58,796 nucleotides of DNA, filler included, from Sphacelaria rigidula (GCA_964200075.2; 9 parts of 9 records of this genome joined end to end with filler, not necessarily neighbours in it), one strand, 5' to 3'. Counted from the whole stretch's first letter, positions 3,139-53,069 are shown. Notes: generated by a model not told the origin, from the letters alone. Made by a program: numbers and translations.

Positions 3139-3860
3139 GTGTGTGCATGTGTAGTCGACGCCAGGTGGGCTTCCCCCCAGTTTATTCCCTCAAACCTTCC
3201 CACGGTTGACAGCATGGATTGTTTAGGGTGAAACCCATACCCTATGTATATGTATGTATATATGAAACACATGTCGCGAGACTTCCGGTGGACAGTGGCA
3301 ACCGTCGAAGGTTGCAGATGATTTTGGGCTGCTGGATCACTAGGCACCGCTTGGGGGCAGATGTAAGTTTCGAGTGATCTCCAGGGGGCATGGTGGATCC
3401 TCAATCACCTAGGGTCCCAGATGCGGCTGTACAGGTATGGGAATTTCGGAGCTCCCAAGCAGTCAGAACTGCACCTGCAACAGCTGTTGTCTGGTTCATA
3501 GGTGATGAAAGAAATCTCTCCGCACATACAAAATGGTGATCTCCAGACACACACACATATATATATAGGGTCCAATGGAGAGCCGAAGACGCTAGGCAAG
3601 AGAGGTGCAGAGGGTGCCCTAGGCAAGGTGTGCGTTGGCAGAGCTCGAATCGATGCCTGACCGGAGGCGACGATTTCGATTTGAGCAACGATGCGTGCTG
3701 TGCGCGCTGGCCAACTGTAGGGACTGTCAGCCCCTCAAGTGTCCGGAGTCATTTTCCATATTGAAAACAAGTGTGACTCAACCATGGGTTTCAGGGGAAC
3801 AGTATGCGTATGATGTGGCATTGTAATGGGGAAGTAATCGGGGGAGGGGAGGGGGGGGGG

Positions 3861-3928
3861 GCGTACTCCTTTGTTGCTTGCCTTGGTCGTTCGACCATTG
3901 ACCACGCATCCCTTTCGAGACGGTGCAC
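3861..3928 (-). mobile_element. Very short family C LINE 3' end with TSD
   Basis: Flanked by gggagggggggggg at 3847-3860 and 3935-3948. Confidence 0.8.
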
Positions 3929-4267
3929 AGGGCAGGGAGGGGGGGGGGTTGTCGAGTGCTTGCAGTAGATGAAGCCCAGCGCATTAGCTTAGGGTACAAC
4001 ATGAGGGCTGTGCGCAACGGTTGAGTGGGGGAGCTTTCATTCCCTGCTCGAAGTATGTGTGCGTGTGTCTGTGTATTTTATTTTCGTCCACCAGGGAGGG
4101 ATGAGTACTTTTTCACTGTGTACACCCATGACTTTTTTTTTCTGCGCCAATAGTCTTTTTTTTCTGTACTCTTTTTTTTTTACTCCCCTCCATCTTGGTT
4201 TTGCGTTGTCTTGACTCGTCCGCCCGTGCGCCTGTCTGTTTGGCTGTATGTATGTGTGTGTTCGCAG

Positions 4268-4320
4268 GAGTTGCACCAGTTTGTGTACCAACATAAGGGA
4301 GGGAAGTCTGTGGAGCTGAT
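4268..4320 (+). CDS. SAMHD1-like exon C
   Basis: gcag| acceptor, |gtgagt donor. Encodes ELHQFVYQHKGGKSVEL(M) with the LHxxxYQHK motif. Too short to appear in the ORF track. Confidence 0.9.
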
Positions 4321-4651
4321 GTGAGTATCACCGATGACAATATCAGTCTTCCTGCTGTATTCTAGGCACAACACTATTTCGTCCTGCACTACATGAGTAA
4401 GATCTAGGATGTGTACGGTGGGAGAGACGCGCAGCTCAACTAATATACTCGTTGGTGTTGGTAGTGGTAGTGGAAGTGGTGGTGGTATTGATGGTGTGTT
4501 GTCCACCGCGGGTACGATCAACCAAAACCGCGTACGTGCTATACTGTGTGTTTGAGTGACCTTGTCAAGGTGATGCTGAAAAATAATAGATGAGGTGGCC
4601 AGTCGAGCAACATCTCTCATGCTGCTAGTACAGTTCACAAGGAGGGGGGGG

Positions 4652-4699
4652 TGTACTCATGATCATGCATGCCATGGTCATCAGACCATTGACCTCGCA
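4652..4699 (-). mobile_element. Very short family B 3' end with TSD
   Basis: Flanked by caaggagggggggg (4638-4651) and caacgagggggggg (4698-4711). Confidence 0.75.
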
Positions 4700-5325
4700 A
4701 CGAGGGGGGGGAAGCGGATGGGAAGAGGGGGGTCCCAGATGAATGCGATATTGTGCCTGCCCAATTGGACGGCACTACTATCGGGAATTCATCTTGACTC
4801 GAGGTTAGGTGTGGTTACCTACTTGAACAGATGATTGTATGCGGCCGCGCCTCGGTGGTCGAGTTGGTGCAATGGTGGGAGGCCCCACTTGAATGCGTTG
4901 TAGTGGAAGCAACATTTGACGACCTCAGGTAAGATTCAGCGACGAAGTTTATTGGTACTTATTGTACCGACAAAACTGCAGGAGGGCCACTGGTACGAGT
5001 CGATTTACACTTGAAAAAAGACCGCCTCGGAAGTGGAGACGTCAGTGTGTTGTGTATCGAAGCTAGTTGAAGCGGATTTTTGGGGGGCGTTACTCCGACG
5101 GTGGATTTTTGTTTTTTTCCTCTTTCAAGTTTTCCGGAAATGCGGCAACGAGTATTGTTTTCGGGGGGCAAAATAATTCGATGGAAGTTGATTACCTGCA
5201 GAAGTGCTGGTTCGATAATGCTCCTTGGATGTATGGTACAAAATGCAACGGAAGGAAGAGGGGGTGCGTCAGTAGTTTATCCCTAGAGACAGTACGAATT
5301 TCGTCCCGCGAAAGGGATGTCTGGC

Positions 5326-5555
5326 GGGGGGGGGGGTCGCAATCATATTTGTTGCTTGCCTTATTAATCGTCGTTTGGCCATTGACCACGGGTCCTTTGC
5401 GAGACGGAGGGAGCACCGTTCCTACTCCTGATGGAGACACCTCCAACATTTCGGCGTCCATTACGTTTCTTCCGTACATTACACAAAACCTTTTACATAT
5501 CTTATCCCCGTTCTCTTCGGCTGTCTATGGCTACGGTCTATCTCCCACCTAGTAT
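5326..5555 (-). mobile_element. 5'-truncated family C LINE copy
   Basis: Reverse match to about 19320-19534, with a G run at its 3' end. Confidence 0.8.
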
Positions 5556-5810
5556 TATGGCGATGAAAATACAAAAAATGAAGACGAGAGAGAGGGAAAA
5601 ACCGTAATGGGTTGGACTGCGTTTGAATTGCAATGGGACCCAACCAACCTGAAATGGGCCGCCAACTTATGAAAGAGTGCAGTTGTACATAAGTTTTGAC
5701 CATAGTTTTCAATTTGTTACGCATATTTAGTACGTATTTTTTTCATTTCGTGACGATGCCCTTCATGTCATTTTTTTTTTTGTCTTGTTTCTGAATTTTG
5801 TTTTGAGCAG

Positions 5811-5940
5811 GTTGGTCGACGCCTTCGTGCTGGCGGACCCGCACTTCTCCGTGGCTGGAAGCGTGGATGACGACCACCCCGACGGCCGCTGGAAAATGAG
5901 CGAAGCCATGTTCGACTGCAAGGCTTACACTGGTCTCAAG
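5811..5940 (+). CDS. SAMHD1-like exon D
   Basis: gcag|G acceptor, AAG|gtactg donor. Encodes LVDAFVLADPHFSVAGSVDDDHPDGRWKMSEAMFDCKAYTGLK, similar to ITDAFLKADDYIEI...YRISTAIDDMEAYTKL. Confidence 0.9.
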
Positions 5941-6373
5941 GTACTGGCTGTGACGATTGAAGAAAAGTGGGGATGATTATGTACGTACGCTATAATGCAT
6001 TTTTTTTCGAGAAACAATTTACATATACCGACCGGCGTTAGTTAGCGTGAATATACCGTGCTAAACCACTTTTTTGGTTTTGTTTTCTCGTCAACTTTCA
6101 TTCCATCCCAAGGGTCACGGGGCGAGTGATGGTTCGCCTCAATATTGCTTGCTTTTAGCGTAATTGATTCGCACCGTACGAATTTATATTTGGGCTTTGC
6201 GTTGCACCTTAGGTACGCGCACTCCAGGCACGTGGGAATAGCGCTAAATTTGCGTAGAGGTGTGTCCGATCCGCGGCGAACTTTGGTCTCTCTTTCGAGC
6301 AATCAGGCCTCGGAAATCGTAGAGCGGTGCACTCGAACCACCAAAGGTTCGTCCGAACGTTGTTCCACCCCCT

Positions 6374-6408
<35 letters not shown>

Positions 6409-6445
6409 CCCCCCGCCCGCCCCGCGCTCGCTGCCCGGGGGCCCG

Positions 6446-6545
6446 NNNNNNNNNNNNNNNNNNNNNNNNNNNNNNNNNNNNNNNNNNNNTTAATTAATTA
6501 ANNNNNNNNNNNNNNNNNNNNNNNNNNNNNNNNNNNNNNNNNNNN
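6446..6545. other. Artificial contig linker (first of 8; others start at 12991, 19535, 26079, 32623, 39167, 45711, 52254)
   Basis: N44 + TTAATTAATTAA (stops in all six frames) + N44. Confidence 0.98.
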
Positions 6546-7742
6546 ACCCCCCTCGATTAGAAGGATGTAAGTGTAGTTGCGGGAGTGGGTCCAGTCCCTA
6601 AGTTTGATTGCAGGAAAATATCTCGGGTACCCGACTGTCGTCAAAGTCACGTTGAAGTCCACCCCCCTCCACCCCCCTCCGCAAGACTCAACGGTTGAAC
6701 TTTTCAAAAACTATACTGATGGGTACCAGATATATCGTAGCACTGGATGTACCTTGGATGCACGCATATATTTTTATCTTTATTTTTCATCCCTACACAG
6801 CAAGCGTTGCCTCGGAATAGTTCCACAGGCAGACACTCCAGGACATCCGGGGATTTCCGGGGGGCGGGGTGGTGGTTTTTGATGGGGAGGTTGGGGCCTG
6901 TCCGCAAAGCAGCCGGAAAGCTGACCAAGTCAACCATATGTGTTCGAAAGTTTTCCACAGAAATTTTATGCCAATAGCGACGCCCGAAAGGAGCGGAGTA
7001 TCCATTCCGACCAATCACGGCTATTAAAATAGTCCCTACAGATGGACTACAGATGGACTACTTCGCTGCCTAGGCGCATTTATCATTTTTGTCATGACAG
7101 GTCAACAATGGATGGATAAGATGGGCACAAATAAACTGCGTGTTACTCTGCTCGTGGTCGGTGCCGTCTCCCTGATCCCTCGTTTGTCGCCAATAACTTT
7201 ACGCTTTCTGTAGTATTGTTGTGGAACGCTAAGCTGAGACATGGGAGCAGCATGCAGTAGACTGCTCAGTGCAGAGCGACGGCACGCCACCTATTCCTTG
7301 CTGTTGTATCCAGCGAAGACATCCAGCACATAGACTGATCCCGCCCGTAGTAGACTGCAGGGCCAAAACCGGCCAGGGGTTTTCCGGGACTATTTTTTAT
7401 GTAAATGCCCGACGTCTGCACTAGCCGAACCTCCGCGTAGTCAGCACACGAACTCGCTTGCGGGGTAGGTGTTGAGTGAGGTTTCCTCCTTCCTTTGAGG
7501 AAGAAAAGAAACGTTCGTGGGAAAACGCGTGTGTGCAGAGCGAGAAAACAGCTCCTCCGGACCCCAAATGTGGCATAGTCCATCTAAATCCATTTGAGGA
7601 AGCTTTGCAGTCTAAGGATTAACAGACAATCCTGAGAAACAGGACATGGAATTTGCTGTAAGAACGAATTAAGATCGAACTTGTGTACCATACTGAACCT
7701 AGTACCCGTCGAAGGTGCCTTGAAGGCATATTTTGACGGGTA

Positions 7743-11468: not shown

Positions 11469-11523
<55 letters not shown>

Positions 11524-12917: not shown

Positions 12918-12990
12918 ATGTACTCATGATCATGCATGCCATAGTCATCAGACCATTGACCTCGCATCCCTACGAAGCCGGGACGGAGCA
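12918..12990 (-). mobile_element. Family B 3' end, cut by the contig end
   Basis: tgtactcatgatcatgcatgccatagtcatcagaccattgacctcgcatccctac matches the family B terminus. Confidence 0.8.
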
Positions 12991-13592
12991 NNNNNNNNNN
13001 NNNNNNNNNNNNNNNNNNNNNNNNNNNNNNNNNNTTAATTAATTAANNNNNNNNNNNNNNNNNNNNNNNNNNNNNNNNNNNNNNNNNNNNGCGCGGTTAT
13101 TCTCGTGGCGGGGTGGCAGGCTGGTTGGCGTCGCGCCCGGGATATATTTGACCGTTACTTCCACGCATTTCCACTTCGAATCGTTGTTGAAAGCAGCAAC
13201 GGTTGTTCAATCGCGCTTGTCACGCATAAATAACGCTCATCCATACTGCATGGCACCCTTTTTAGCCAAATACTATACGACAGCACCGCGAGTGTGTTCG
13301 CTCGTCTGACATACCAATGAGCTTTTATTTTCGTGGAATCGACAACCAACCACCCCCCCCCACACCCCCACACAACAATACTAAAATAAACCAACANNNN
13401 NNNNNNAACAAATAGACACACACCCCGGGGGGGGTGTCGCCGCTCTCAACCACGCCCTTTTTTTTTTTTGTTTGGCCGCCCCCCCCCCCCCCCCCCCCTC
13501 CCTATCGTAGCATGACTCGTATTTAGTAAGGCAACTTTCGTTCAGAGCGTTTCCTGTTGCTCGGCTACCATGAATTACCGCGGTGAGCGTTA

Positions 13593-14938: not shown

Positions 14939-15290
14939 CCGGTCGCCCCGGTGGCTCAATAGGTAACCTCGGAACCCTCTGACGGTTGGTTCGTGGGTTT
15001 GAATCTCGGAGCGATCTGGGATTTTTTCTCGCACCATGCCCAGCAGTGGAGAGCGACTATGTCGTGGGTACACAAAAATTTGACTTGATTAAGGGTCGAC
15101 GACGGAAAGGGAGTGCTGAACCCCTCTCGCGATAAAAAATAAAGGCAAGCACCGCAGAAGGAAGGTGGGGTATTGAAAAAAAAAGAAACTCCTGTGTTGA
15201 CCTTCCTCCTGTGTGATCCCGGCTGGCGCGCCCACATATACCGAAAGGTGTAGACCGGCGTCCGGCATGATGGGACGACAACACACACAC
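14939..15290 (+). mobile_element. tRNA-derived SINE (family G), full length
   Basis: A-box-like TGGCTCAATAGG, B-box-like GGTTTGAATCT and an (AC)n tail. Second copy at 34295-34654(-), 5' fragment at about 52087-52121(-). Confidence 0.8.
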
Positions 15291-16764: not shown

Positions 16765-17324
16765 GTATTTTTCATTTTTTTTTGTGTAGGCTTATTTTCA
16801 TATTGTCTTTCCCTTGTTGAGAAAAAAAATCAACCATCCATCCTCAACCATCCAACCATCCATCCATCCTCAAGCAATCTTTAGTTAGTTAATTAATTAA
16901 TTAATTACTTATGTATTTCTTACCCTATTAAGACCGTTAATGGAAGAGCGACGATTTACAAACTCGCATTTGCGAGCTTTCGTCACCAGGGAAACGTCAC
17001 TTGGAGTTCGGTGCACGAATATGTCACATTGAGCATACTTGAACTGAAGAGTGATGCACCGTGTTAGGGGGCTGCATAATCAATCATTGCAGAAAACCGA
17101 CAACCATATCTTGCCCCGAGAAAACGTCAATTGTAAATCGTCACTTTTCCATATACGGTTCCGAAAAAAAAATTTCGCCTTTTTTTTTCGCCTTGTACGG
17201 CGTCTCTGGCTCTGTGACTTCCGCCCCTGATTGCCGTGGTGAGACAGACACCTGTGAGGCAGCGTGTAAGTCGTGGCTGTCCATGGACGTGTCGATACCA
17301 TAAAATGAAGCAACGCCTTGGAGG

Positions 17325-17564
17325 CTGTCACCCATATGCAAGATTATAAGTACGCTTCGGACCGAACAATCTTGGCAGAGTGCAGATCACCCGTCATGCG
17401 ACTCGCCGAACACATCACGGCGCTTCGTTCTTGATTGTTGATTGCGAGCCCGGTCCGGCTACAACCCGGCGTGCTCCGTCGCGGCTTTGCAGGGATGCGA
17501 GGTCAAAGGTGCTGAGACCATGGCATGCAAGCTCATGAGTACCCCCCCCCCCCCCCCCCCCCCC
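17325..17564 (+). mobile_element. Family B truncated copy with long poly(C)
   Basis: Ends gctcatgagta followed by about 23 C. Confidence 0.75.
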
Positions 17565-17579
17565 ACCGGTCGCTCAAAA

Positions 17580-19534
17580 CGATGTGCGTAGAGAGAAAGA
17601 ACAACGAAGGGAGGAGGCAGATCTGGTTATGCTGTATAACTGGATATGTGAAAACGAGTACACACCCAAGAGGTGGAGAAAAAGAGTAGTCGTCAATCTT
17701 TTCAGAAGAGGAGACCAGGCTGACCCAGAGAACTGTAGAGGAATAACGCTACCGAGCACGGTAGGGAAAACGTTCTGTAAGATTTTGAATGGAGGAGGAA
17801 CGATGCTAGAAAATGACGAAAAAATCAGCGAGGGACGAGCAGGTTTCAGACCAAACCGTAGTTGCGTAGGCCATGTGTACACACTAGGTGAGGTGATTCA
17901 AGGTAGGAAAGACGCCGGGCTGACAACCTACTGTTTCCTACTCGACGTGCAAAAGGCTTATGACATAGTATGAAGAAATGGGCTGTGGAAAAAGCTGCGG
18001 GAAACTGGGATCAGAGGAAAGATGTACAGAATGGTGAAGATGACAGAATGTGCCAAAAGTGCCGTGATGTTAGGCGGAGAAATATCGAAAATACTTCGAT
18101 ATTTTACAACGAGTTGCACAAGGATGTACGTTATCACCCACTTTATTCAAGGTGTTTGTCAATGACTTGATAATAGCAATAGAAGTAGCAAACCAAGGCG
18201 TCAAGGTGGGTGAAGATCTTCTATCATGTTTGACGTTCGCAGACGATTTTGTGGGGATTTCAGGAACAGCAAAAGGATAGCAAAAACGAATAGGAAAAGG
18301 CTCTAGAATACACTGGGACATTGAGAGTGACGGCGGACGTGGACAAATGCGCGGTACTCGTCTAACGGTGATGAGAAAAGTCCGGTAGAGTTCAAATAGA
18401 AGTGGGGAGGAGAGGAACTGCCGATCGTCGACCGGTACACATACCCTGGTGCAGAGACCTCATGAAACTGTTCTTGGGATGCACACATGAACAAAGTGAT
18501 GGAAAAGGGTAAGGCACAGATAGGAAGGATGGACGGGGTCCTCACAGACTCGCATCTAGACACTAGGATTGAGAGATGTATCCTGATGAACGTGATCGTA
18601 CCAAAGCCGGAACCTGCAGGAGAAGTATGGGAGGGGGACGTGAAGTTGAAGAAGTTGGAAACAGCACACGGCAGCTAACGAGATACTTGGATGCTCGAGA
18701 ACGACGAGAAATACAGCATTGCGAGCAGAGTTGGGAAAGTACGCACTTCAAACAGAGACATGAGGAAACTAAGGTGGTAATATAGCGCGGAGAACATGCA
18801 GAGAAAGAGATGGCCAGCTATAGTTGATACGGCTGCATGGACAAAATTACAAACGGGCATGCTGGAATAAGGTGGGATAAGAAGTCGAGACAGTATGGAA
18901 GGAGATATAAGGAATCCAAGACAAAATACTGTCCACAGATGAAGGCGCGGGGTACAAGACAAAAGTGAGAGATATGGTAGACGTACGGGGAGGAGGAGTG
19001 CCAAGACGCAAAGTAGACAAGGAAGAACACCTTGAGATATACGGCGGGTTGAGAGAGGGGATCGGGATGAAAACACGTCGGCATGGCCCCATGGACGCTG
19101 CAAAAAAAAGGAAACTGCGAGACCGAGACCTGCCAGAAAGAAGAGATACACCAGTAGACGTGTGGAGGAGGAAGTAGATGGGCAAAACTGCCTCTGTGGC
19201 TAAGAAACTGAGAGCACTCATCTGGTTGCAGAACGTGAACTGTACAAGGAGGAACGGGACGTTCTAGGGGGAAATGCGGGACTTGAGCGAAGGTGGCATG
19301 AAATCGTTTGATGCATTGGATAATAGGGGGAAAACGATGGCTATACTAGGAAATAGATGGCCAGAGACGGCGGAACAGGACGGGCACAAGATACGTAAAA
19401 GGTTTTTGCGCCATGTATGGAAGAAACGTAATAAGCGCCGGAATGTCGAGGGTGTCTCTATTAGGAGTAGGAACGGTGCTCCGTCTCGAAAGGGATGCGT
19501 GGTCAATGGTCGAACGACTAAGGCAAGCAACAAA
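17580..19534 (+). mobile_element. Decayed, 5'-truncated LINE: RT domain, C-terminal zinc-knuckle remnant and 3' end (family C source type)
   Basis: RGITLxSxVGK, GFRPNRSC, LDVQKAYD, QGCTLSPTLF, FADD and YTYPG motifs, with several stops and frameshifts. A CxCG...H remnant lies at about 19190-19240. Clade not assigned. Confidence 0.92.
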
Positions 19535-26057: not shown

Positions 26058-27539
26058 GAGAGGGGGAGGGGGGGGGTGNNNNNNNNNNNNNNNNNNNNNN
26101 NNNNNNNNNNNNNNNNNNNNNNTTAATTAATTAANNNNNNNNNNNNNNNNNNNNNNNNNNNNNNNNNNNNNNNNNNNNTGAGGCCAGAAGAGCTGGGGAG
26201 TCCCTCAACAGCATTTAGACGCTGCAGTACTAGCAGACCTGCTAGCGTCACACCGCAATTTATTTGACGTGAATGAACTTCGTGCAATATACAGTATGTG
26301 GGGCATACAAAACATGGGAAGGCGAACAGGCGCAATATATCTTGCGCAAAAACTATAGTGTGTGCCTAACATGACATAGGACTTATCGACTCATAAATGG
26401 AAGTGAGCACGAAGTTCACATCTAGATTCGCCGAAGCACTTCAAGTCGTAACCTCGGTGCTGAATACACTCCACACGCTTGCCCGAAACGGGTTCGGTAT
26501 AAACCTCTGAATATTGGCCGCATGGTAACAAGCGATGAGCACGGCCAATAATATATGCCGAAAAATCGGTGCGCGGCTGTACTACGATTTATGCTGTTCT
26601 ATTCGGACGACTCACCCCACGGATATGCCACGATATAAGTACAACGTGTATAGGCACACAATGTAGTCACCGCAACGCGCCCCAATATACGTTATTTGGG
26701 CAATATGGTGCCGTCTATGCGTTCCAATACTTTTGTATGTAGGTATTGCACTCGTTGGTTGGGTAATGCGGGTGCCCCCTCTGCGCTCCAACCTAACCAA
26801 ATGAGCAACCCCCACCCGCCACCGACTGCATGCGCGCCACTGCTTGCATTAATTCTTCCCCTCTTTTCGCCTTGCTGCCTTTTTCTTCTTTCTACGAGTA
26901 TTTGAATATTTTTAAAGAGATTGCCCTGTGACCAGGGCGCTTTCAATTTCAATTTATTTCGGTGTTTGTGACGTTGCGGTCTTCGATTATCGATGTGAAA
27001 CCGGAGTGGTCTCGGTTGGGCCCTTGTTAGACGTGGCTCTAAAATGAAGGTCTGCCGCACGTACCCGGTGTATGGTGATGTGTCGTTGCACGGAAGCCCA
27101 AAGTTGTAATGGAGCATGAATCGTTCATGTTATCGCCGTCGCCCTACATTTGCAGGGGCCTGCAGCAAACCGGCGCTGAGACGCGAGCCGTTTCCCGGCA
27201 AATTCCCGCTAGGTCGTCCCGCACTAATCCCATCCATCACCATACCTGCCTGTTTCCAAGTACACGTACAGGACTTGCTTCCCGGTATGCCATACACTAT
27301 AAGTTGAAAACTGTTGTTTCTCGTGTAGGCAGGAGACGACGTCAAGCGTCAAGCAGCTGCACGCTGGGCCGAGGGGCCCCATATCGGGAAATGACGGCAC
27401 CCCCCCCCCTCCCCCGAGGTCGCTCAAATCTCATTCTGGGGCCGTGGAAGGGTGGGGGGGGGNNNNNNNNNNCACTCCGGGACGACCCCCCCCCCCCCCC
27501 CCCCCCCCGCGGCCCCCACAATCTCCTGCGGGGCCCGTG

Positions 27540-27570
<31 letters not shown>

Positions 27571-32530: not shown

Positions 32531-32622
32531 GACACTCTCTACGATACCCCCCCCCCCCCCCCAAACCAGCAAAAAGCGTCACGAAAAAAACGGCCATATA
32601 GCGCCTGGTTTTCGGGTTAAGG
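32531..32622. mobile_element. Terminus of repeat family D (also 45626-45710)
   Basis: Both copies begin at gacact.tcta.gata followed by a C run and aaaccagc, and both run into contig ends. Confidence 0.7.
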
Positions 32623-32778: not shown

Positions 32779-32812
<34 letters not shown>

Positions 32813-34294
32813 GGTATCCAGCGGATGTCGTGCCCCGCCCCCCCCCAACAATGAACAGCAACCCTGAATTAGGAGCTGTGCACACAAATGACACTGCGAC
32901 GCCAGCACAGGAATTAAGGTTGTTCATCCGTCAAGACTATCTATACAGTGAACAGCCAGCAGCCGACGCCTGGGTGCAAAATTATCCCGATAAGGCCGTG
33001 TCTCCATCGAGAAACATTTGATCTGCCTGAAAGCAGACTTGTGACCACAAAAATAGCTTTCAGTCTCGTCGAAAGCACTTTTTTCATTTTTCAGTCCAGA
33101 TGCAAGCCAGATCTGGGCATAGGTTCCAGAACGCGGCAGTTCTAGGAGCGGCTGTTGGTCCAGCCTCCCTGTGCCGGTACCGAAAAGAAGCGACGAGAAA
33201 GCACAACATCTACACACCGAGCCCTGAAAAAATAAATACGCACAGATAACCACCGCCCAGGCGCTTCGGCTTCACCTCTGGCTCTTGCTCATCTACACAC
33301 AGCAGTCTTTGTTTGACGAAAATCCGTTAAATAGTGAAGGAAGGGTGACCTCACGAACGGGTGTGTTCGGCGCGCGTCAGACACAAACTGCTGTTTCTCG
33401 TCGTATTCTGCCCCGATTTCGACCAAGGCAAAGAACAACTTGATCGGTTGATCAGCAGCTACGGCTCGAGGTGAGCGTCTGTTGTTCATGAGTGTAGCGG
33501 GGCTCTTAGCTTCACGTATTTGTGTTGAGTTGCGAATCACTCTCTTGCGCAGCCGCTGCGGAACCCGGTGTGCTCCGTCCCGGCTTTGAGGACACGGAAG
33601 GTTAGTGTCATGACTACAGCACGCAAGATAATGACTACAACCCCCTGCGGTTACGATGTCTATCAAAAGCACGCACACTCACCCACCGCTTACACACATC
33701 AGCCTTAGCGCCAGCCCCTGCTGACCTACGCACAGCAGCCCTCGTCTGACAGAAACATGTTCTGCTTTGGATGAAATGCAATTGTATGCAAGTGGAACTA
33801 CAATCGAAAACGTGCCGTCGCTAACCGGTCGTGTGCGTGTGCTGTGCGCGCGTCTCACGCAAATGTTCGTTTCTCATTGAATTCTAAACAGATTCAAGCA
33901 AAACATACGCAAAAGTTGCTCAGCGAATAGGCAGCTACGGATCGAGCTGTGTGTTCTTGGTTTGCGGGGACAATGCGTTCTTCAGGTCCACCACAGAATG
34001 TGTTGGGTTGGATAGCAAGCCTTTGCATGTGCCTCTATCAACGGAACATTGAGGTTCCCATTTGAGGTGTACACAAGATCCCCTTCGCAAGGGGATATTG
34101 GGGCCTTTGGGGTGGGGTGTTATTGTAGCGACCAATCATCGACTGTTTCTTCACAAGGGGATATTCTCCTTCAATAGGGCCCGGTCTTGAGCCCTAGACA
34201 GGGAGCGTCGGCTCGGAACAGCTTCACAGGCTGATCGTCCGGGGACATCCGGAGGTTTCCAGGGGGCTGGGGCTGGGGCTGGGGCGGAGGCGGC

Positions 34295-34654
34295 GTGTGT
34301 GTGTGTGTGTGTGTGTGTTATCGTCCCGTCTACTCTGGACGCCAGTCTACACTTTTCGGGATATGTGGGCGCACCAGCCGGGGTCACACTGGAGGAAGGA
34401 CAACACAGGAGTTTTTTATTTCTTGTTTGTTTTTGGTACTCCACCTTCCTTACGCGGCGCTTGCCTGTTATTCATCACGAGAGGGGTTCGGCATTCCCTT
34501 TCCCTCGTCGACCGTCAAGTCGAATTTTGTGTACGCACGACGTAGTCGCTCTCCACTGTTGGGCATGGTGTGAGAAAAAATCCCAGATCGCTCCGAGATT
34601 TGAATCCACGACCCAACCGTCAGGAGGTTTCGAGGTTACCGACTGAGCCAGCGG
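34295..34654 (-). mobile_element. tRNA-derived SINE family G, copy 2
   Basis: Reverse match to 14939-15290 with a (GT)n tail. Its 5' tip abuts a family B copy. Confidence 0.8.
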
Positions 34655-35112
34655 GGTGTACTCATGATGTTCCATGCCATAGTAATACGACGATTGACCT
34701 CGCATCCCTACGAAGTCGAACCAGGCTCGTATTCAATCACCACGCGCGAAGCGACGTGATGTGTTCGGCGCATAGCATGAAGGTTGAGCTGCTTCGTACC
34801 AAAAGTTGTGGGCCCGAAGACTACTAAGCATCTTGAACGTAGATAATAGCCTCCAATGAGTTGCTTCATTCTTTGGTATCGCCACTTCCAGACACAGCCA
34901 AGGGTTCCACACTGCCGCATGGACCTCTCGTCGTGTAAAAACTACGTAGGGTGATCATCCCCTTTGCGAATAATTGAGGTTCCCTCACCCCACATACATG
35001 ATCTAGCTCGACCAGCATCATGGTTCCGCAAAACAATGCATGCGCAACACCCCCCGGTAACCTGCTTGCCTAGCTTACCCAAAGAGAGGCATGTTTTACA
35101 GCGTTGTTGCCA
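34655..35112 (-). mobile_element. Family B, apparently full length (about 460 bp)
   Basis: The 5' limit coincides with that of the 52354-52685 copy. Further B copies follow at about 35130-35425 and 35605-35697. Confidence 0.75.
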
Positions 35113-36406
35113 ACCGATGCCCTACGGTTGGGGGGGGGGGGTATTCATGATCATGCATGCGATAGTCATAAGGCCATTGACCTCGCATCCCTACAAAGCC
35201 GGGACGGAGCACGCCGGGTTTTCGCCGGACCAGGCTCGCACTCAATCACCAAGCGCGAAGCGCCGTGCTGTGTTCGGCGAGTCGCATGAAGGGTGAGCTG
35301 CTAAGATTGTTCGGCCCGAAGCCTACTGATTATCTTGCATTTGGATGACAGCCAACAATGAGTTGCCTCATTTTCTGGAATCGTCATTTCCAGAGACTAC
35401 CAAGGGTTCCACACCGCCTCATGGACGCCCCAACACATACGTGAACCAAAACGACAGAAATCGAGCGCACCGAGCAGCTAAAACTCCCATGTTTGCTGCG
35501 ATCGTTTTCGCCAAAGTCGCCTGTGTGAAGGGTCTCATAAAGTCTGAAACCAGCTATCGTGCGCTGGATGGCCATTTTCTTCGTGACAATTTTGGTGCTG
35601 GTTTGGGTGTACTCATTATCATGCATGCCGTACTCGTGTGACCATTGACCTCGCATCTCTACAAAGCGGGGACGCAGCACGCCGGGCTTCCGCCGGATGG
35701 CGCTGGTTTGGGGTGGCGGCGGGCGGGCGGGGGGGGATATTGCGGCATAACTTGGGTAAGAAAATATGTTCTTGTATTCCATACCATTTCCATATTCCAA
35801 ATATCCCGAATTTTTTTTCACTCCCTCAAATCGTTGTGCCATTTGCACGGTATAGGCCAAAACAGCGGCTACCAACCCTGAATACGCGGCAGAAAGCACC
35901 CCCCCCCCCCCCCCCCTGACGAAATGTTATGTATGCCACTCGCCCGCGGTAAACCCCGCGCAACAATACACTCAGAANNNNNNNNNNCCCGCCCCCAAAT
36001 CGTTGGGCCATTTGACCGGTATAGCCCAAACCACCGGCCACCAACCCTGAATACGCGGCAGAAGCCCCCCCCCCCCCCCCCCCAGGTACGGCTATTTTCT
36101 TGTCCCCCGCGCTATCATGCACCCCCCACCCGAATCTGACTCAACTACTGTTCATGCACAAATGTGCATAATCTATTTAAATTCGGGCTCTTGATGAATT
36201 TAAATTTCCCGAAGTATTGAACTCGGAAATCCAAGACCTGACCTGACATAGCGTGGAACTGCCCGGTACTAAAATCGGTATAAAGTGAATCCCGTCACGA
36301 CATAATCAAATGGTCTGGTTCACAGCCCTTAATCTAACGGTTAAGCCGCTTCTTACGGCGTTTTGTCTTCCTGGGAAAATGCGTTTTTTTGGAACTTTTG
36401 CATCGG

Positions 36407-40689: not shown

Positions 40690-43600
40690 AGTTCCTGGCG
40701 GGATAGCTCCTCCCAGTCTCCGTCTTCGTATCGTACTCGCTAAGAGCGACTCCCCTAGTCATACACCTGACCCTTGACCTTGAGACCTCCAAAGTCTTTC
40801 CAGAAAGTAACACCTATCGGGAAAAGCTTCAAGGCGTCACTGCGCGACAGGGGAGCGGGGCGCTTCTTGGAGTGCGGAGGCGGGTTGGGTGTAACTGCGG
40901 GGTTGTACAGGTGCCAAAGTTCGTGGAAAGCGTCTAGTTCCAAAGGAGAAAAGCTGTTTCGGAGCTGGCTCTCTGCCAACCTGTCTGACACCTTTCCCTC
41001 CAACGATCTGGCCTTATATTCCCATTGTTTCGTGCCGGTCATGGAGTAGATCTCTCGGCGGTCCACTAAAGTGACGAACTCGTGAGTTTGGGGAGGAGTG
41101 GTGTTGGACTTGCAATCTGCACCCCATACGTATTGAGCGAACTCGTCGGCTATCGAGTGCCTGAGATGCGGTTGGCGAACATGGAAGGGTTTCACGTCAG
41201 AGACTGCTACTCTACGTGTACGACGTTTGCACCCCTGCATGGTTACCTCTACACTGAGGCCGGTCATCAGCACTTCATTCACTCTCCAGGGCCCCGTGTA
41301 CCTTTCGTGTTGCAGTTTTCTACCCTTACCGTCCCGGTGTATCGTGCTGTCTGATTCGCGTATCATGACCAGACCCCCTTCTCTCGCCGCCACTCCGGGA
41401 GAAGGTCTCAAGATTGAGGCGTTCATCTTCGCACGAGTCGATGCTTTCGCGGCGTGTCTTTTGTCAAAAGCTAGACGTACCTCCTTGAGATTTTGTCTAC
41501 GTTGCTCTACGAAGGCATCCAGACCGTTACTTGATTCCTTCTCCTGATTCAGGGGAATGAGCGAATCTAGAGGCGTGCGGAGTTCACGACCGAACAGAAG
41601 CTCAAACGGGGACATGTCTGAGGGTAGGGAAACGTCTGGTAAGGTACGCTTGATCCAGAGCGCTGGGGAGACATACTCGTCCCATCTCTGGGGCCACGAC
41701 CTACACAGCTCTTCCAGCATGTCTAGTAGCCATCCCCCCAGCCTCTCGACTGCTCCTTGGCCTCTGGGATGATCAGAGGGCCCAAAAGCAATATCTGCTT
41801 TCAGCCACCTGTACAGGTGTGTCACCACCTCAGCTCTAAATTCATTTCCTCCTTCACTGCGGATTTTGCGGGGGACGCCAAATGTCAAGCAGAGTTCAGC
41901 AAGGATGCGAGCTACACTTTCAGCCTGCTTCGTTTGGAGTGGGAAGCCGAAGGGAAAATTGGAGGCTTGGTCTATGATCGAAGTAATGTACTTGTTGTTC
42001 GTAAGCGATGCAGTGTCTATGCTCAGCAGGTCCATCTCCAACTCTTCCCATGGTTCTACGGCTCGTCCCGATGTCATTGCAATCTTGCAGCTGTTGGACC
42101 TCTTCCTCCTTCTACAGCTGCAAGATAACACGTGTAGTCTGGTATCCTTTATAATTGACGGCCAGAAAAGCGATCTCGCATCAAAGACAGCGTAGCTACT
42201 ACTCCAATATGACCATGTAGGGAGTGTACCAACGCCAAGATGTCAGGTACGATAACAGAGGGGATGGCTAGCAACGGTTTCTCAGTGTCCTCCGTAAACC
42301 ACGCCACACCTTGATCGTCCAGACTGTATTGGTGTGCAACGTCGTCACTTACCCTATTCTTGACATCATTTTCCGTACTGGGCACCTCCTCTTCCCCTGG
42401 TACCTCGTCGGCACTCGCCACAATCTCGCAGTCTGCATCACTCGTATAGGGTGCCTCTTTTCCCCCCTGCACCTTGTCTACACTCACCGTACTCTTGTCA
42501 TCCTTGTCATTCGTACAGTGTTCCTTCTCTCCCCTTAGTATCGACCTCACCTGCCCCAGGAACGGGTCCTCCTCCTGTGCGCGTTTCAGCGCGGATGCGT
42601 TTGTCAACATCTGTAGCGCCCTCTTGAATACCGACGTGTCTACTGCAATTTTTACCGTAGACGAGGGCTTGTCCCCCCTGGCGATGAGCACCTCTTCCAC
42701 TTCCGGCCGCTCACTGACCGGGGCAGGGGCGATGGGAGTAGGCTCTCTCGTTGGGGCTTCAATAGGCGTGATACCAACCGACGGCTGAAGGAGTCATCCT
42801 ACGATAGGGGGGGGGGGTATTTGGTTGCACGCAAAAAGAGGCTCATAAGTGTGTCAGACATCCTTCCACACTTGAGTTGCGCTTGTATTTGGTTTCAAAC
42901 GGTGTCACAACGAGCTTGTTCGAGCAATCGTTGCTGCTTTCAACGACGATCTGACTCGAAATTTCGAGCAACAAATGCCCCAAAATACCCCCACCCCTAT
43001 CGTAGGATGGCTCGAAGGCTCATCTGAATATCTGTAAGCACGGTACGTATGCGAGCAGTGCCTGGGAACTGCAAGCGTACGGACGGACGGCGTATTCTGG
43101 GGCAACAACGGGGTGATTCGTCTTCTATCGACGCGCAGTCAGCGAACGGGAGCGATCGCGAGGTGCCTAGGTATCTCGCTTCATCTATAATCTTGCCTTC
43201 CCCCGTGAAATCAAAAGGTGACAATTCCGACAACCATTTTCCCTCTAGTTGTGGACCGCAGACCTTTCGGCTTCCGAGGATGTGCTGGCGGTGAAATCGT
43301 CGGGGAATGAGTCGTCTATGTCATCTCCTGGTCTCTGTTAATGAGGCAGGTGGGCCATAGCGTCAGGTAACACGTGTTGGGTTCCCTCCCGCCATCGAAG
43401 TTACACGTCGTACTCCATGAGTCGGAGCACCCACCTGTGAAGCTTGGGACACAGATCGCGAGTGCGAAACAGCCATGTCAGCGCGGAGCAGTCTGTGACT
43501 AGTCTAAACTTCCTCCCCGCTAGATACGGTCTAAAGTGTTGGACCCCTCATATCACGGTCATACATTCCCTGTCCGTGGGTGCTCGACGCGAGTCTGTAC

Positions 43601-45625
43601 GTGAAAACCGATGACTTGCGAATGCGATGATGCGGGAGTCTTCTCTCACTGGCTGAAGGAGGGTGCCCCCCGCACCCACTGTGCTGGCGTCGGTCTGCAA
43701 TTCGAACGTGCTATTCAGGTCGGGGAAAGCGAGGATCGTTGGTGATGCTAGGGAAGACTCAAGTGTCTGGAATGCTGTTTCCTGGTTATCACCCCACGGG
43801 ATGCTTAACTTTCGTGCACGACGGGAGGCAAATTCTTTGTTGCGAAGAATGTTGGTCAACGGGGCGGCTATTATGCTGTACTTCTCGACAAACTGTCTGA
43901 GGTACCCGGTGGGCCGAGAAACGAACGGAGTCCCTCAACAGTGCGTGGACGTGGCATCTTAGCGACTGCGGTGAGTTTGGACGGAGCCGGTTGTATCCCT
44001 GTGCTATCGAGGAACATGCCAAGAAATTCCTGAGACGGTGCTGCAAAGCTGCACTTGGCAAAGTTCACCGAGAATCCTGCAGTCGACAATCGCTGCAAGA
44101 TTATGGTCAATAGTGCCAAGTGCTCATCCCACGTGGGGCTGGCTATGAGGATGTCATCTAGCCAGCTGTGTACACCGGTCAGGTTGCCTATCGTTGACTT
44201 TACCCTACGAGTGAAAGCTGCCGGGAGTACTGTCAGTCCGAAACCTGCCCTGGTGAACTCGAAGAGTAGGCCGTCCGCATCTCTGAACGCCGTCTTGTGG
44301 CGGTCTTTTCCGGCGATCTCGATTTCGTGGAACCCTGAGGCTAGATCTAGTTGCATGAAATATCTCTTGCCTTTGAGACCATCAAATATAGACTGCATGT
44401 CACCCAGTCCTCCGCTATCAGACACTAAAAGCTTGTTCAGAGCACGCCAGTCTATGCACAGGCGTGAGGTACCATCTTTCTTCTTGACACAAAGACACTG
44501 CGCGGCCCATGGAGAGGTTGGGGGGCGGATAACTTCGCGGTCAAGAAGCTTATGAATTTCTTCCCTGATCATTCGGCGTTCTTCCAGCGAGAAGCGGCGT
44601 TGTTTTGCGGCGAAAGGCGTGCTACTTTCGTCGATCAATAGTAATTCTAGCTCACCATTAATGCAGGCTGGCACTCGCTTGGGGTCCGTGGGAAACAATC
44701 CTGCTTCCACGAAATCCTGTAGGACGCGCACCGGTTCCGCCTTCTCTACTCCCCCAAGCTGTCCCATGTTTGCATCCGACACACGGACCTGGCTAGGTTC
44801 TGAGAGAAGTTGACCACGCTCGAGGCACGAGGGGGGTGCGGGCACGGTAGGTTGGTCTACCGTTGATGGTGTGTCGTCGAAAAGTGAGTGAAAGCGAGCA
44901 GAATCGCGCACGTTGAGGGCTATTAAGCGCGCGATTGTTCCGCTTGCCTTCACTACGGCTTTATCCTTACCTCTATTTACTGACTTACAGTAAACTGGAA
45001 ACTCTGGTACCCACCACAACACTCCTTTGGCTATCCCTACCAACGCTTCACCGTCCAGGTCATACTTAGCCAAGGGCAGCACCAGCACCAGCTGCTTATC
45101 CTGGGGTTGGGATCCCATGACGACCGATTCCACCGCCATGCTTACAAATCCATCGATGGAGACGGAATGCTCGGCCAGCTTGACGTTCCACTCCCTCGTA
45201 CCGTCGTCTTTCCAGGCAATGTCGCTGTAGCTGAGGAACTTACAGGGCGCGGCAGGAGGCATGGCTAGCGAACAAACTTCGTTGAGCGTTTCAAGGGCCG
45301 AGATGTTCGGTTTAGCATGTCGGGGGCTACCATTGGTCAAAAACGGAATCCACGGTGCGGACGGGGTAGGGCGAAACCCTCCTGTGGCTTTGAACTCGAG
45401 AGTGCTACGGTTTGCCCCAAAAAACTCGGCCCCAAGACTGAACCCGTAAGGTAGGTCCTCTACCACCCTGACTGTTCACGAACGCGAGTATCCTTAGCGA
45501 ACAAGATAGGTATCACGACTGATCCAACTATACACATCGGGGGTACCTTGCCCCGTGAGGGGTTGGCAGCGCGAAGGGTGCCAGCATTGTTTGTGTCCAG
45601 CTTGGCATGTATTACTTCTGCTTTT
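40690..45625 (-). mobile_element. Ty3/Gypsy LTR retrotransposon pol pseudogene (protease C-term, RT, RNase H, integrase)
   Basis: RT: SPWAA, RLCIDWRALN, LDLASGFHEI, KTAF, WLDD. RNase H: LQTDAS...IAFAS. Integrase: H2C2, D-(D>E)-E core and YTGPW. Domain order PR-RT-RH-IN, with frameshifts and stops. Confidence 0.95.
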
Positions 45626-45710
45626 GACACTTTCTATGATAGCCCCCCCCCAAAACCAGCTAAAAATGTCACGAAAAACATGGCCATATAGCGCCTGATG
45701 TTCGGGTTCA
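45626..45710. mobile_element. Family D terminus interrupting the Gypsy protease region
   Basis: Matches 32531-32622. Confidence 0.7.
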
Positions 45711-49167: not shown

Positions 49168-49323
49168 TGACCGTCTATACTCGTGCACGCTCCGACAATC
49201 AATTTGAAGATGACCGTCTACTTGTGCACGCTCTGACAATCCATTCGAAGATGACCGTCTACATGCGCGTGCTCCGACAATCAATTCGAAGATGATCGTC
49301 TACCTGTGCGGGCTATGACCGTC
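49168..49323. repeat. Tandem array, 41-bp unit, about 3.5 copies
   Basis: tga[ct]cgtcta at 49168, 49211, 49252 and 49293. Confidence 0.85.
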
Positions 49324-49639
49324 CCGGGGGCAGGGCTACATTCTTCTGATCTTGAGAGTCCAGGAGTTCCACACACCACACATTCCTTTGCCGAGATTTA
49401 TACCGGAAATAATCTGATAAACATATTGTTGGCTTGGAATGAACGACTCGTCTGTTTACCGCGGAGACTATGCAAGTTGCCAATATACAAGTCGGACATC
49501 GAATGGATGAACGAGAAAGTTGTATGAATCATATATATATATATAGATATATAGATATGCTTGCACCATACAGCGAACAAGCAGGATTTGATTGCATACA
49601 GGAAAATGGGCGAGGATGAAGGCTCAAGATGTCAAGACC

Positions 49640-50270
49640 ACGTTTTTTCGAACAGGTGAAAGGGGGCCAGGAGTTTCCCTTGCGCGTGCGAAGAGGTTGA
49701 CAGAGATCCAGGATTTCCCATGTGTTTTCGAACGGTTGACAGGGGAGCCAGGATTTCCCATGTGTTTTCGAACAGGTTGACAGAGAGCCAGGATTTCCCA
49801 TGTGTTTTCGAACGGTTGACAGGGGAGCCAGGATGTCCCATGTGTTTTCGAACAGATTGGCAGGGGGCCAGGAGTTTCTCTTGTGCGTGCGAACAGGTTG
49901 ACGGAGATCCAGGATTTTCCATGTGTTTTCGAACAGGTTGACAGGGGAGCCAGGATTTCACATGTGTTTTCGAACAGGTTGACAGGGGGCCAGGATTTTC
50001 TCATGCTCTTGTGGACACGTTGACAGGGATCCAGGATTTCCCATGTACTTTCGAACAGGTTGACAGAGATCCAGGATTTCCCATGTGTTTTCGAACAGGT
50101 TGACAGGGAGCAAGGAGTTTCCTGTGTTTTTCGAACAGATTGACAGGGAGCCAGGAGTTTCCCATGTGTTTTCGAACAGGTTGACAGGGAGGCAGGAGTT
50201 TCCCTTGTGCGTGAAAACAGGTTGACAGAGATCCAGGGTTTCCCATGTGTTTTCGAATAGGTTGACAGGG
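49640..50270. repeat. Minisatellite, about 40-bp unit, about 16 copies
   Basis: Consensus ccaggatttcccatgtgttttcgaacaggttgacag[ag]g[ag]g. Units start at 49667, 49708, 49748, 49788, 49828, 49868 and onward. Confidence 0.95.
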
Positions 50271-50894
50271 ACGTTGGTGACTGAGAATGTTTCTTCCAGA
50301 CACCGCCCTCGTGACTCTTGAATCATGGAGAGTGTAATACACTGCAATGAAGCATCCATAATTATTTCAATAGGTGTTTTTATATCTATGTGACACGTGC
50401 GTGCAGGTTTAACGTGTCCATTGTCACATAGCTAACCCCAAATCGGTGAAAAATGAGTGGAAACCCCTTGAACCCTCGAGCCCAGCCGTTCTGCCCGGCG
50501 GGATCCGTCGAACAGCCTCCCGTGCAGCACCCATTTCCAGGCGAGGTCTGTTAGCTAGCTTGGGGGGGCAGATTTAGGGTTGGCTGAGGACATCACGTCC
50601 ACACCTCTACTATATACTCTGACGGATAGGAAAGCAGTGTTGGGCCCAGGATTGTCGTGAGTGTGAGAACATCAACGGTTGTTTCACGACGGAGCTGAGC
50701 CACACTGGCTTTCAGAGGAGAGGATTTGGACAGTTTCACTGAGTTACAGTTGGATGCGCTTCATGCCTTGTGGGAATTATATCAACCGCAGACCAGGCCA
50801 CGTCCATCTGATACACCATCTCGAGCAGAAAGGGGCTCAATTGCGTGGTAGATTCCCCGATGTACCAAGATCCGCAAACGGTTTACGGACAGCC

Positions 50895-51335
50895 CAGAGC
50901 AGTCAACAAGATCAAGGACTTCTCCGGACTGGGTGGGATCGTCTCTGTACGGGTGTTTAAATTCCCTACGCGGTTTAACCCGGCAGAGCGGTCAACAAGA
51001 TCAAGGACTTCTCCGGACTGGGTGGGATCGTTTCTGTACGGTGTTTAAATTCCCTACGCGCTCTAACCCGGCAGAGCGGTCAACAAGATCAAGGACTTCT
51101 CCGGACTGGATGGGATTGTTTCTGTACGGTGTTTAAATTCCCTACGTGGTATAACCCAGCAGAGCGGTCAACAGGTCAAGGACTTCTCCGAACTGGATGG
51201 GATCGTTTCTGTACGGTGCTCAAATTCCCTACGTGGTCTAACTCGGCAGAGAGATCTACAAGAGCGGGAGTTGCCGAGACTGTTTGAGATGGTCCTGCAC
51301 GGTGTTTAAATTCTCTACGTGGTCTAACTCGGCAA
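50895..51335. repeat. Tandem array, 88-bp unit, about 5 copies
   Basis: gtcaaca at 50902, 50991, 51079 and 51167. The last unit is diverged. Confidence 0.92.
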
Positions 51336-52353
51336 AACGGACTAAGATCGACGGCTACACGAAACCAACGCCGAATACTCGAGGACGAGGAAGATGGTAA
51401 CGCGGCGATCCATCGTCGAACCACGTTCAGCCCCAGGGTTTGTCAACCCTAGGCCTGAGGGGGGGTGTTATGGATCGCGGCATACATGGAGGAAGGGCAG
51501 TACAATGATGGGCACATCTAATCTGATGGAAAGGTCCCGGAGGGCTGACTGCGGGAACTGGCAATGTGCCGCAGTCAGGGGGGAGGATGTTTGAGCCCGT
51601 ACGAAGACGGTTACATAAATATGCCTCTTTACATTCGGCTTGAACTCGGTTCTTTCAGAATCGGTGAAAAACGGCCCCCTGGTTTTTACTCCTATGGAAG
51701 AGAACAAAGTGGCCTGAGATATGAGATGCAAAACCACCAGTGCAAAAGAGAAATACCATCGCCTGAAGCTGAGATCAAGACCCCCTGACATTCAGGATGA
51801 GCTGTTCCTCGTTAAACTGATCATCCCTTGTACTGGAAAACTGTTTTGCCCTGCGATGAATGGTGAGCGCGAGTACGTACCAATCACTGCATAAACTATT
51901 GCACATGGATGAAGATGCCGCATGTTTGGTTGAAGTAGGAAATTCACTTCATGCCCCGTCTTGTGAAGATCCGTCATCACAGTGCTTGAGCAGCGATCAC
52001 GGTAACCATAACAATTGAGACAGCAGTAAAAACGAACTAGTGCACAGACAAGCCAGAGAGGCTACTATACTGTTTGTCCGTATCATTTCGAGGTTACCAA
52101 CTGAGCCACCGGGGCGACCGGTCTGCGACGGTCATACACGAGCAATTCGAGAGCCAAGTTTTTGAATTTGAGAGCGCCACTTGTACAAACCTGCCCGCGC
52201 ATAGACGAGCATTTGTGATGCTTAGCGGGCAGGTGAACAGCACGCACATAGTTNNNNNNNNNNNNNNNNNNNNNNNNNNNNNNNNNNNNNNNNNNNNTTA
52301 ATTAATTAANNNNNNNNNNNNNNNNNNNNNNNNNNNNNNNNNNNNNNNNNNNN

Positions 52354-52685
52354 CATGAAGGGTGAGCTGCATCCTGCCAAGATTATCAGCCCCGAAGCCG
52401 ACTGATTACCTTGCATTTGGATGACAGCCTCCAATGAGTTGCTTGATTTACTGGTATCGCCACTTCCTGAGACAGCCACAGGTTCCACACTGCCTCATGG
52501 GTATCTCATCATCATCTCCTTTGCGCGGAGGTGAGGTTCTACCACCCCGCGCAATATGATCTAGCTCGACCACCACCATGGTTACCGCAAAAAAACGCAA
52601 GCGTACGAAAAAAAAAGACGGTAACCTGGTTGCTTATCGTACGCAGTGAGTGGCGTGTTTTACGGCGTCATCATCAAACGACGCC
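52354..52685 (-). mobile_element. Family B 5' part (3' end cut by contig start)
   Basis: Aligns with about 34776-35112. Confidence 0.75.
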
Positions 52686-52760
52686 AACCCCATAGGGGGC
52701 CCGCCCCTACAAAGCCGGGACGGAGCACGCCGCGTTTTTGCCGGAGCAGGCTAGCGGGGG

Positions 52761-52838
52761 GGGGCGTGGGGGGCGTACTCATTTGTTGCTTACCTTCGTC
52801 GTTTGACCATTGACCACGCACCCCTTTCGAGACGGAGC
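52761..52838 (-). mobile_element. Short family C LINE 3' end with 19-bp flanking duplication
   Basis: cggagcaggctagcggggg at 52742-52760 and 52833-52851. Confidence 0.85.
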
Positions 52839-53069
52839 AGGCTAGCGGGGGAGGGTGGAGGGTGCAATGGTGGCCTTTTTTTCTGCACTACTACTGTTGT
52901 AGTAGTAATAGAGTCAGCTTTCATATGACGAGAGAATAGAGATACTGTAGAAATAGTAACAGTTCAGTGCAGAACAGAATATGCTACGCTTACAGTACAC
53001 ATGCCAGCTTCTCGCACAATCTTCACGGTGGATTCATCAGCCGCTACCCGACTAGACTATGATTTGAAT

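Follow-up and report, generated by a model that had tools for sequence, protein, structure and literature searches.

The stretch of Sphacelaria rigidula DNA analyzed here (GCA_964200075.2; 58,796 nt at full length, called the window below) contains copies of a long interspersed nuclear element (LINE), family C, and of a short repeat, family B. Most of the visible 3′ ends of both families are followed by a run of C, and the copies with a recognizable target-site duplication (TSD) lie at a C/G run that was there before the insertion. The two families are probably a LINE and its non-autonomous partner of the RTE-X type known from Ectocarpus, with (C)n 3′ ends and C-rich TSDs, inserted by target-primed reverse transcription.

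The window consists of nine unlinked pieces (6443-6445 nt each) with eight 100-nt spacers between them. Each spacer is made of 44 N, a 12-letter word with a stop in every frame, and 44 N, and they start at 6446 (6446-6545), 12991, 19535, 26079, 32623, 39167, 45711, and 52254. The span 3847-52851, over which the first-pass annotation had drawn a LINE system ending in poly(C) and inserting at G tracts, is therefore not a single locus. Besides the spacers, there are four 10-N gaps. Several pieces start or finish in high-copy repeats or long homopolymers, resembling contig ends, and piece 3 breaks off 3 nt short of the LINE stop codon (copy C4). For comparison with other data, we use contigs of public sequencing runs, among them X1 and X4 (DNA) and X6 (presumed RNA, only by the guess of the tool).

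Comparing the window with itself and searching it with its two longest copies yields 10 copies of family B and five of family C (Table 1). The 3′ end is visible in 12 of them (eight B and four C) and is lost in the remaining three, at a piece end or by truncation. In the orientation of the element, B copies terminate in ...CATGAGTAC(A) and C copies in ...AAATGAGTACG(C). At least seven C follow eight of the 12 ends (B1, B2, B4, B7, C1, C2, C3, and C5), 3-5 C follow three more (B5, B6, and B8), and no end is followed by an A run, in agreement with the earlier observation of C runs and no poly(A) at the ends of these families.

Table 1. Copies of families B, C, and D in the window, with the sequence following the 3′ end (element orientation; G runs on the + strand for copies on the - strand) and the TSDs
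Copy	Position	Strand	Description	After the 3′ end	TSD position	TSD length and match	C run of 5′ duplicate	Excess at 3′ junction
B1	1856..2094	+	Family B, 5′-truncated	C15 (2095-2109)	1841-1855 / 2105-2117	~14 nt, degenerate	C5	+10
C1	2580..2959	+	5′-truncated LINE 3′ end, ORF2 C terminus; TGA 2950-2952	CT, then C7 (T + C7 at 2960-2967)	none found			
C2	3862..3928	-	67-nt family C 3′ fragment	C11 (G11 3851-3861)	3847-3860 / 3935-3948	14 nt, exact (GGGA + G10, + strand)	C10	+1
B2	4652..4699	-	48-nt family B 3′ fragment	C8 (G8 4644-4651)	4638-4651 / 4698-4711	14 nt, 1 mismatch	C8	0
C3	5337..5548	-	Family C, terminal motif diverged	C11 (G11 5326-5336; G13 in one X4 contig)	none found			
B3	12920..12990	-	Family B 3′ end; 5′ part cut by end of piece 2	no C run				
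B4	17255..17564	+	~290-nt family B with C run	C23 (17542-17564)	none found			
C4	17623..19534	+	Decayed LINE ORF2, reverse transcriptase to C terminus	tail beyond end of piece 3				
B5	33545..33637	+	Diverged family B 3′ fragment, 67% identity	CAA, then C5	none found			
B6	34659..35129	-	Family B with ~200 nt extra 5′ sequence common with B9; 5′ end abuts C12 tail of B7	C4	none found			
B7	35130..35426	-	~290-nt family B	C12 (G12 35130-35141)	none found			
B8	35608..35697	-	Family B, 5′-truncated	C3	35593-35607 / 35698-35712	15 nt, 1 mismatch, ending GGG	C4	-1
D1, D2	35823-35916, 35992-36083 (35823..36083)	+	Family D	C18, C19				
B9	52354-52506, extending to ~52700	-	Family B; 3′ part cut by piece start					
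B10	52705-52755	-	Family B, truncated at both ends					
C5	52773-52838 (with tail 52756..52838)	-	66-nt family C 3′ fragment	C6-ACG-C9 (C6-ACG-C run 52756-52772)	52742-52760 / 52833-52851	19 nt, exact (up to 22 with 1 mismatch)	C5	extra C6-ACG unit

The same ends occur outside the window. A 20-nt motif from the 3′ module shared by the two families returns 118 loci from marine metagenome contigs, of which three (L016, L028, and L086) carry the family C repeat and 115 are bare matches to the 20-mer. All three show the terminal motif of family C and then at least seven C, with an A run in none. Over the 15 ends of the window and the metagenomes, a run of at least seven C is found within 14 nt of the end in 11, and three more have 3-5 C; the background is 550 of 115,572 14-nt windows (0.48%), for a binomial tail of ~4e-23. 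The same counts do not fit an L1-type LINE with poly(A) (A run after 0/12 ends in the window and 0/3 in the metagenomes). Scans of viral contigs with the 3′ motif and with the ORF2 protein gave no match. The C runs at the ends of copies are not specific to this assembly: those at 2095, 3851, 3939, 4644, 4704, and 5326 are unchanged in contigs from three other public runs of two studies, apart from a single difference in length, in a contig of X4 that has two more G at 5325.

Family C is the 3′ coding end of a LINE open reading frame (ORF), ORF2. The evidence comes from locus L016, where a 5′-open ORF2 of 681 amino acids, with RVT_1 at 2.8e-33 and a Cys/His motif near the C terminus, lies upstream of a family C end; the locus is 83% identical to C1 over 226 nt. 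In a tblastn search of the window, this ORF2 matches 17623-19534 (C4) with an E-value of 2e-137 and ~50% amino acid identity, and it matches the coding C terminus in C1, C2, C3, and C5. The ORF2 stop is the TGA within the terminal ATGAGTAC motif, 6-7 nt ahead of the C run. The LINE thus has practically no 3′ untranslated region (UTR), and the shared 3′ module of ~75 nt also codes for the end of the protein. Among the 35 long ORFs of the window compared with Pfam, the hits over the curated cut-off are all Ty3/gypsy-like and none is LINE-like; C4 is too decayed to keep an open frame of at least 110 amino acids. Full-length relatives (e.g., P0032, P0048, and P0049) join an apurinic-type endonuclease (PF03372/PF14529) to a reverse transcriptase (PF00078); the endonuclease domains are seen in these relatives alone, C4 being 5′-truncated and L016 5′-open. 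The best of the named protein matches come from Ectocarpus sp., where they are unnamed products (58% identity). Amino acid identity to Ectocarpus proteins is 38-58% overall, and one of these, P0004, has a C-terminal peptide similar to the end of the L016 ORF2 up to the last residues.

Family B aligns with family C over the last ~75 nt only and, judged on this sharing, appears to be a dependent, non-autonomous partner of the LINE, so that the term "LINE system" of the first-pass annotation fits the pair, C with the ORF2 C terminus and B with the common 3′ module. The 5′ boundary lies ~290 nt from the end in four B copies, two of which have ~200 nt more of upstream sequence in common. ARAGORN calls no tRNA in the window, and no B copy has a match in Rfam (E up to 0.1). 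A strict SINE (short interspersed nuclear element, with a head derived from RNA polymerase III transcripts) is rejected on this ground. The tRNA and Rfam searches assign the head of B to no source, and the head of RTEX-N1 of Ectocarpus is likewise listed as of unknown origin (PMC12477816). A third short repeat, family D, differs in its 3′ motif; C18 and C19 follow its two copies and a C-rich stretch precedes each. Families B and probably D would carry the 3′ end of the LINE, or an analogous one, without coding capacity, and would presumably be copied in trans. In every run, the summed contig depth over B and C exceeds that of neighboring unique sequence by a factor of 10^4 to 10^5 (in X1, 3.6 million vs. 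34), which marks them as a very high-copy family, depth not being the same as copy number.

TSDs are found for five of the 12 copies (C2, B2, B8, C5, and B1), with lengths of 14-19 nt. In element orientation, all five open with a C run (C3-C10), against a background frequency of 1.9% for CCC at a given position. The first-pass annotation had listed three duplications, at C2, B2, and C5, and these are present at the same coordinates (14 nt exact, 14 nt with one mismatch, and 19 nt exact), each ending in a G run on the + strand. It had also pointed to C tracts on both sides of the copy at 1856: C15 follows that copy, and the C-rich 1841-1855 in front of it is a degenerate duplicate, of ~14 nt, of the 3′ flank. 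The duplication around B8 is an addition to that list, and the proposed insertion at G tracts agrees with all five recognizable TSDs. Target-primed reverse transcription has a standard geometry, in which a TSD begins with bases complementary to the 3′ end of the primer. With TSDs that open with a C run, the primer strand would thus have ended in ...G(n)-3′OH, nicked just 3′ of the G run. The base after the nick, read from the flanks, is A or T in 5/5. Since the 5′ duplicates of all five TSDs hold the C run, the run pre-dated the insertion. No contig spans an empty site among the contigs listed; contigs of X4 run from the flank into C2 and B2, and both insertions are thus present in X4.

One contig of X6 covers 3036-3136 and again 5811-5941 (+), with 55 letters of contig between them. 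The flanks are splice-like (GT at 3139-3140 and AG just before 5811). The two segments are probably exons of a host gene, spliced from a transcript of the + strand, and on that interpretation C2, B2, and C3 would probably be intronic.

The copies suggest the following course of insertion. The endonuclease would nick the G-run strand directly 3′ of the run, the 3′-OH of the G run would pair with the terminal C residues of the RNA, and synthesis of complementary DNA would start at ...GUAC(G/A). The second strand would be cut 14-19 nt off, so that the C run is duplicated and one run becomes two. The C run that follows a copy would then be a mixture of the target's own run (in three of five cases entirely so) and of C copied from the RNA. 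The C tract of the RNA would be variable and often short, most likely produced by transcription into the C run of the source copy itself and renewed by slippage. The repeated ACG-plus-C unit of C5 suggests slippage; it resembles re-priming on a template that ends in ...ACG plus C. The identity as a LINE, the C runs, the architecture of the TSDs, the 5′ truncation, and the nesting at earlier C runs are seen directly; we infer the C-tailed RNA, the priming by base-pairing, the specificity of the endonuclease nick, and the RTE-X membership.

Several points weigh against this account. Three of the five insertions with a TSD carry essentially no C beyond the target run (C2, +1; B2, 0; B8, -1), so the run in these is target DNA and not an added tail, and a tailless RNA fits them also. 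C beyond the duplication is present only in B1 (C15 vs. C5) and C5 (the extra C6-ACG unit). The C-tailed transcript is deduced from DNA and contigs, and the ends are few (12 from the window and three from metagenomes). One of the 12 ends, B3, has no C run after it. A TSD is not found in six of the 11 copies with a visible 5′ end (B4, B5, B6, B7, C1, and C3), among them the long-tailed B4 (C23) and B7 (C12); B3, with its 5′ end cut off, is outside this tally. A conserved 3′ stem-loop was looked for with RNAalifold in 13 ends, and the result is -6.4 kcal/mol with 0/14 covarying pairs. The RTE-X assignment is an indirect one, made by homology to unnamed proteins of Ectocarpus and by the type of tail.

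The near-equality of the 3′ run and the 5′ duplicate in C2, B2, and B8 is what would be expected if the RNA were tailless, ending in ...GUAC(G/A) with at most one C, and if the endonuclease were specific for G runs; the C runs would then be those of the target, lengthened later by replication slippage. B3, without a C run, also agrees with this, and the tail that differs by 2 G between sequencing runs indicates that such homopolymers do slip. The target of C5, however, lacks the C6-ACG unit that stands between the terminal motif and the TSD, and B1 exceeds its 5′ duplicate by 10 C. Genome-wide, the consensus of loose contig ends beside the B 3′ end is a G run, which in X1 (142 contig ends) and X4 (121) has 13-22 letters and so exceeds the 3-10 C of the five targets; in X6 (37 ends) it has 8. 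We regard a tailless RNA as unlikely.

Other non-LTR reverse transcriptases (LTR, long terminal repeat) are known for template jumping and for the addition of extra nucleotides. The head-to-tail arrangement B7-C12-B6, with no TSD between the units, could be read in that way, with untemplated G added to the nicked target before the RNA is engaged, or at template jumps, giving C runs and tandem C-run joints de novo. This is very improbable, as the C run is already present in the 5′ duplicate of all five TSDs and no observation demands untemplated addition. That the homopolymers are artefacts of sequencing or assembly (e.g., poly-G reads of two-colour chemistry) is hardly credible: breaks of the assembly do coincide with runs (a run of 33 stands at the end of piece 1 and another at the end of piece 4, and G9 touches one 10-N gap) and some isolated long runs have no adjoining repeat, but the C runs at copy ends are always on the sense strand of the element, whichever strand of the window that is, the TSDs contain them in duplicate, the contigs cited above cross them without any change, and the metagenome copies from other projects also carry them.

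Preferring insertion by a C-tailed RNA primed from a G run, we turn to the runs themselves. Copies are nested at earlier C runs. C5 is inserted exactly in the C run next to the 5′ end of B10, and B8 in the C run at the head of a third copy of another repeat; the two copies without an insertion, at 32553-32618 and 45643-45708, are paralogous empty sites. The copies of this host repeat (32547-32618 and 45643-45708) begin right after C16 and C9, both at piece ends, and there is weak similarity upstream of the run too. B6 and B7 form a head-to-tail pair in which the 5′ end of B6 abuts the C12 tail of B7, and B9 and B10 are arranged in the same way. By duplicating the run in its TSD, each insertion leaves two landing sites where there was one.

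The first-pass annotation had suggested that repeated insertion seeds or expands the G/C homopolymers that break the assembly. The window has 32 C/G runs of at least 8 nt, and 11 of these touch a recognizable copy (nine B/C and two D). The other 21, which include the longest isolated runs (33, 33, 30, 28, 23, and 20), show no link to B, C, or D by similarity of the 120 nt upstream, and the suggestion is thus weakly supported. Long runs of opposite type also occur close together, at 27486-27569 (C23, 33 nt, and G28), 13427-13498, and 32781-32846; no recognizable repeat end lies beside them, and one adjoins a 10-N gap. Only tentatively do we put forward a self-feeding loop, in which an insertion primed from a G run duplicates the run in the TSD, sometimes lengthens it, and leaves two new landing sites; we hold it to be somewhat less probable than its negation. 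If true, it would account for the nesting at earlier C runs, for the head-to-tail arrays joined by C runs, and for an unusual richness of the genome in long G/C homopolymers that break short-read assemblies.

In the LINEs L1 and their partners Alu, poly(A) RNA pairs with a nicked T tract in target-primed reverse transcription. The Sphacelaria copies are similar in that the homopolymer at the RNA end would be complementary to the nicked primer, the TSD opens with the base of the tail, TSDs have 14-19 nt, 5′ truncation occurs, and a partner would be mobilized in trans. They differ in that the base is C and not A, and in that the tract cannot come from polyadenylation and is often no longer than the target run. 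In addition, there is next to no 3′ UTR, and a specific 3′ sequence is common to the LINE and its partner (the stringent type). Some LINE families insert in microsatellites, in TC, AC, or TAA repeats. There too the 3′ terminus of an element corresponds to the simple repeat in which it inserts; here, in contrast, the target is a mononucleotide run, scattered genome-wide and multiplied by the element's own TSDs. LINEs of the RTE clade have a very short 3′ UTR that ends in simple repeats, and they have SINE partners. The very short 3′ UTR, the simple-sequence end, and the partners that copy the extreme 3′ end are all found in the Sphacelaria families, whereas the terminus is a C homopolymer and the target itself a C/G run; the RTE rows of the Ectocarpus table have (CAA)n (PMC12477816).

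The closest comparison is with Ectocarpus, where RTE-X is the most abundant LINE group and RTEX-N1, a non-autonomous element of ~600 bp (607 bp) with a 3′ end common with RTEX-1 and RTEX-2, is the single most abundant family (PMC12477816). In the curation table, RTEX-1_Ec32 is entered as "single EN-RT ORF; (C)n 3′" and RTEX-2_Ec32 as "(C)n termini/TSD", and the TSD is "C-rich" in all RTEX rows (PMC12477816, supplementary file 1). RTEX-N1 and RTEX-N2_Ec32 are non-autonomous with a shared 3′ end of 60-100 bp, RTEX-N1 "can be present in tandem", and other LINEs of the table end in (CAA)n (RTE families) or (CA)n (CRE family) (PMC12477816, supplementary file 1). A LINE type ending in C is thus already described, every descriptive element being in that curated table (PMC12477816), and the Sphacelaria element is a further member, in another alga, of a catalogued kind. 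A search of the main text of PMC12477816 by terms finds no discussion of the mechanism behind the C end. A literature search on poly(C)-ended non-LTR elements and on brown-algal LINEs and SINEs gave nothing relevant, with RTE-X in brown algae only in PMC12477816; passages of a Saccharina genome paper and of a paper on bivalve transposable elements have nothing on tails.

The Sphacelaria and Ectocarpus elements have in common the (C)n 3′ terminus, the C-rich TSDs, and abundant short partners with the 3′ end of the LINE. Copies in tandem, often truncated at the 5′ end and (here probably) within introns, are found in both, and the Ectocarpus LINE has a single ORF with endonuclease and reverse transcriptase (PMC12477816). 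Beyond the host, they differ in the ORF2 protein (the 38-58% identity given above) and in the size of the partner, ~290 nt for B (~480 nt in some copies) versus 607 and 188 bp (PMC12477816). Set against the portrayal of the Ectocarpus families in that paper, abundance appears far higher here, as contig depth and not as copy number. With a non-LTR reverse transcriptase, a (C)n 3′ terminus, C-rich TSDs, and partners that share only the 3′ end of the LINE (the last ~75 nt; 60-100 bp in RTE-X), membership of that clade is likely.

Other features of the window lie apart from families B, C, and D. The interior of a Ty3/gypsy-like LTR retrotransposon occupies 40755-45475 (-), with RVT_1 (1.8e-19) and RNase H-like (5e-21) domains over the Pfam cut-off and matches to an integrase core and a zinc-binding domain below it. 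Another repeat has two copies, 14946-15290 (+) and 34309-34656 (-), 83% identical over 356 nt, with a 3′ end that runs into a CA repeat; one of them starts directly after the 3′ end of B6. Its 5′ ~70 nt look tRNA-like by eye, and neither ARAGORN nor Rfam called a tRNA there. The CRE LINE with a (CA)n end, listed for Ectocarpus (PMC12477816), is a candidate partner of this CA-ended repeat. Self-comparison gives tandem-repeat arrays at 49638-50271 (shift ~40 nt) and 50895-51334 (shift ~88 nt). At 58675-58745 (-), Rfam has a tRNA match (41.5 bits, E 2e-05) that ARAGORN does not call.

The value of these families as a discovery is limited, the descriptive facts being in the Ectocarpus table already, and the interest that remains is mechanistic. 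For practice, the elements and their duplicated runs are a likely cause of the fragmentation of assemblies of the brown-algal type, and repeat libraries should include RTE-X elements ending in (C)n and their short partners. For the biology of LINEs, the Sphacelaria element would be a natural example of target-primed reverse transcription with a homopolymer that pairs C:G instead of A:T, in an element with coding sequence to within 7 nt of its end, and it bears on how LINE RNAs that are not polyadenylated define and regenerate their 3′ ends. Under the self-feeding loop, if true, the C tract at the terminus would serve as a "tail" that is encoded in the genome and inherited, in place of polyadenylation, by a LINE that lacks a 3′ UTR.

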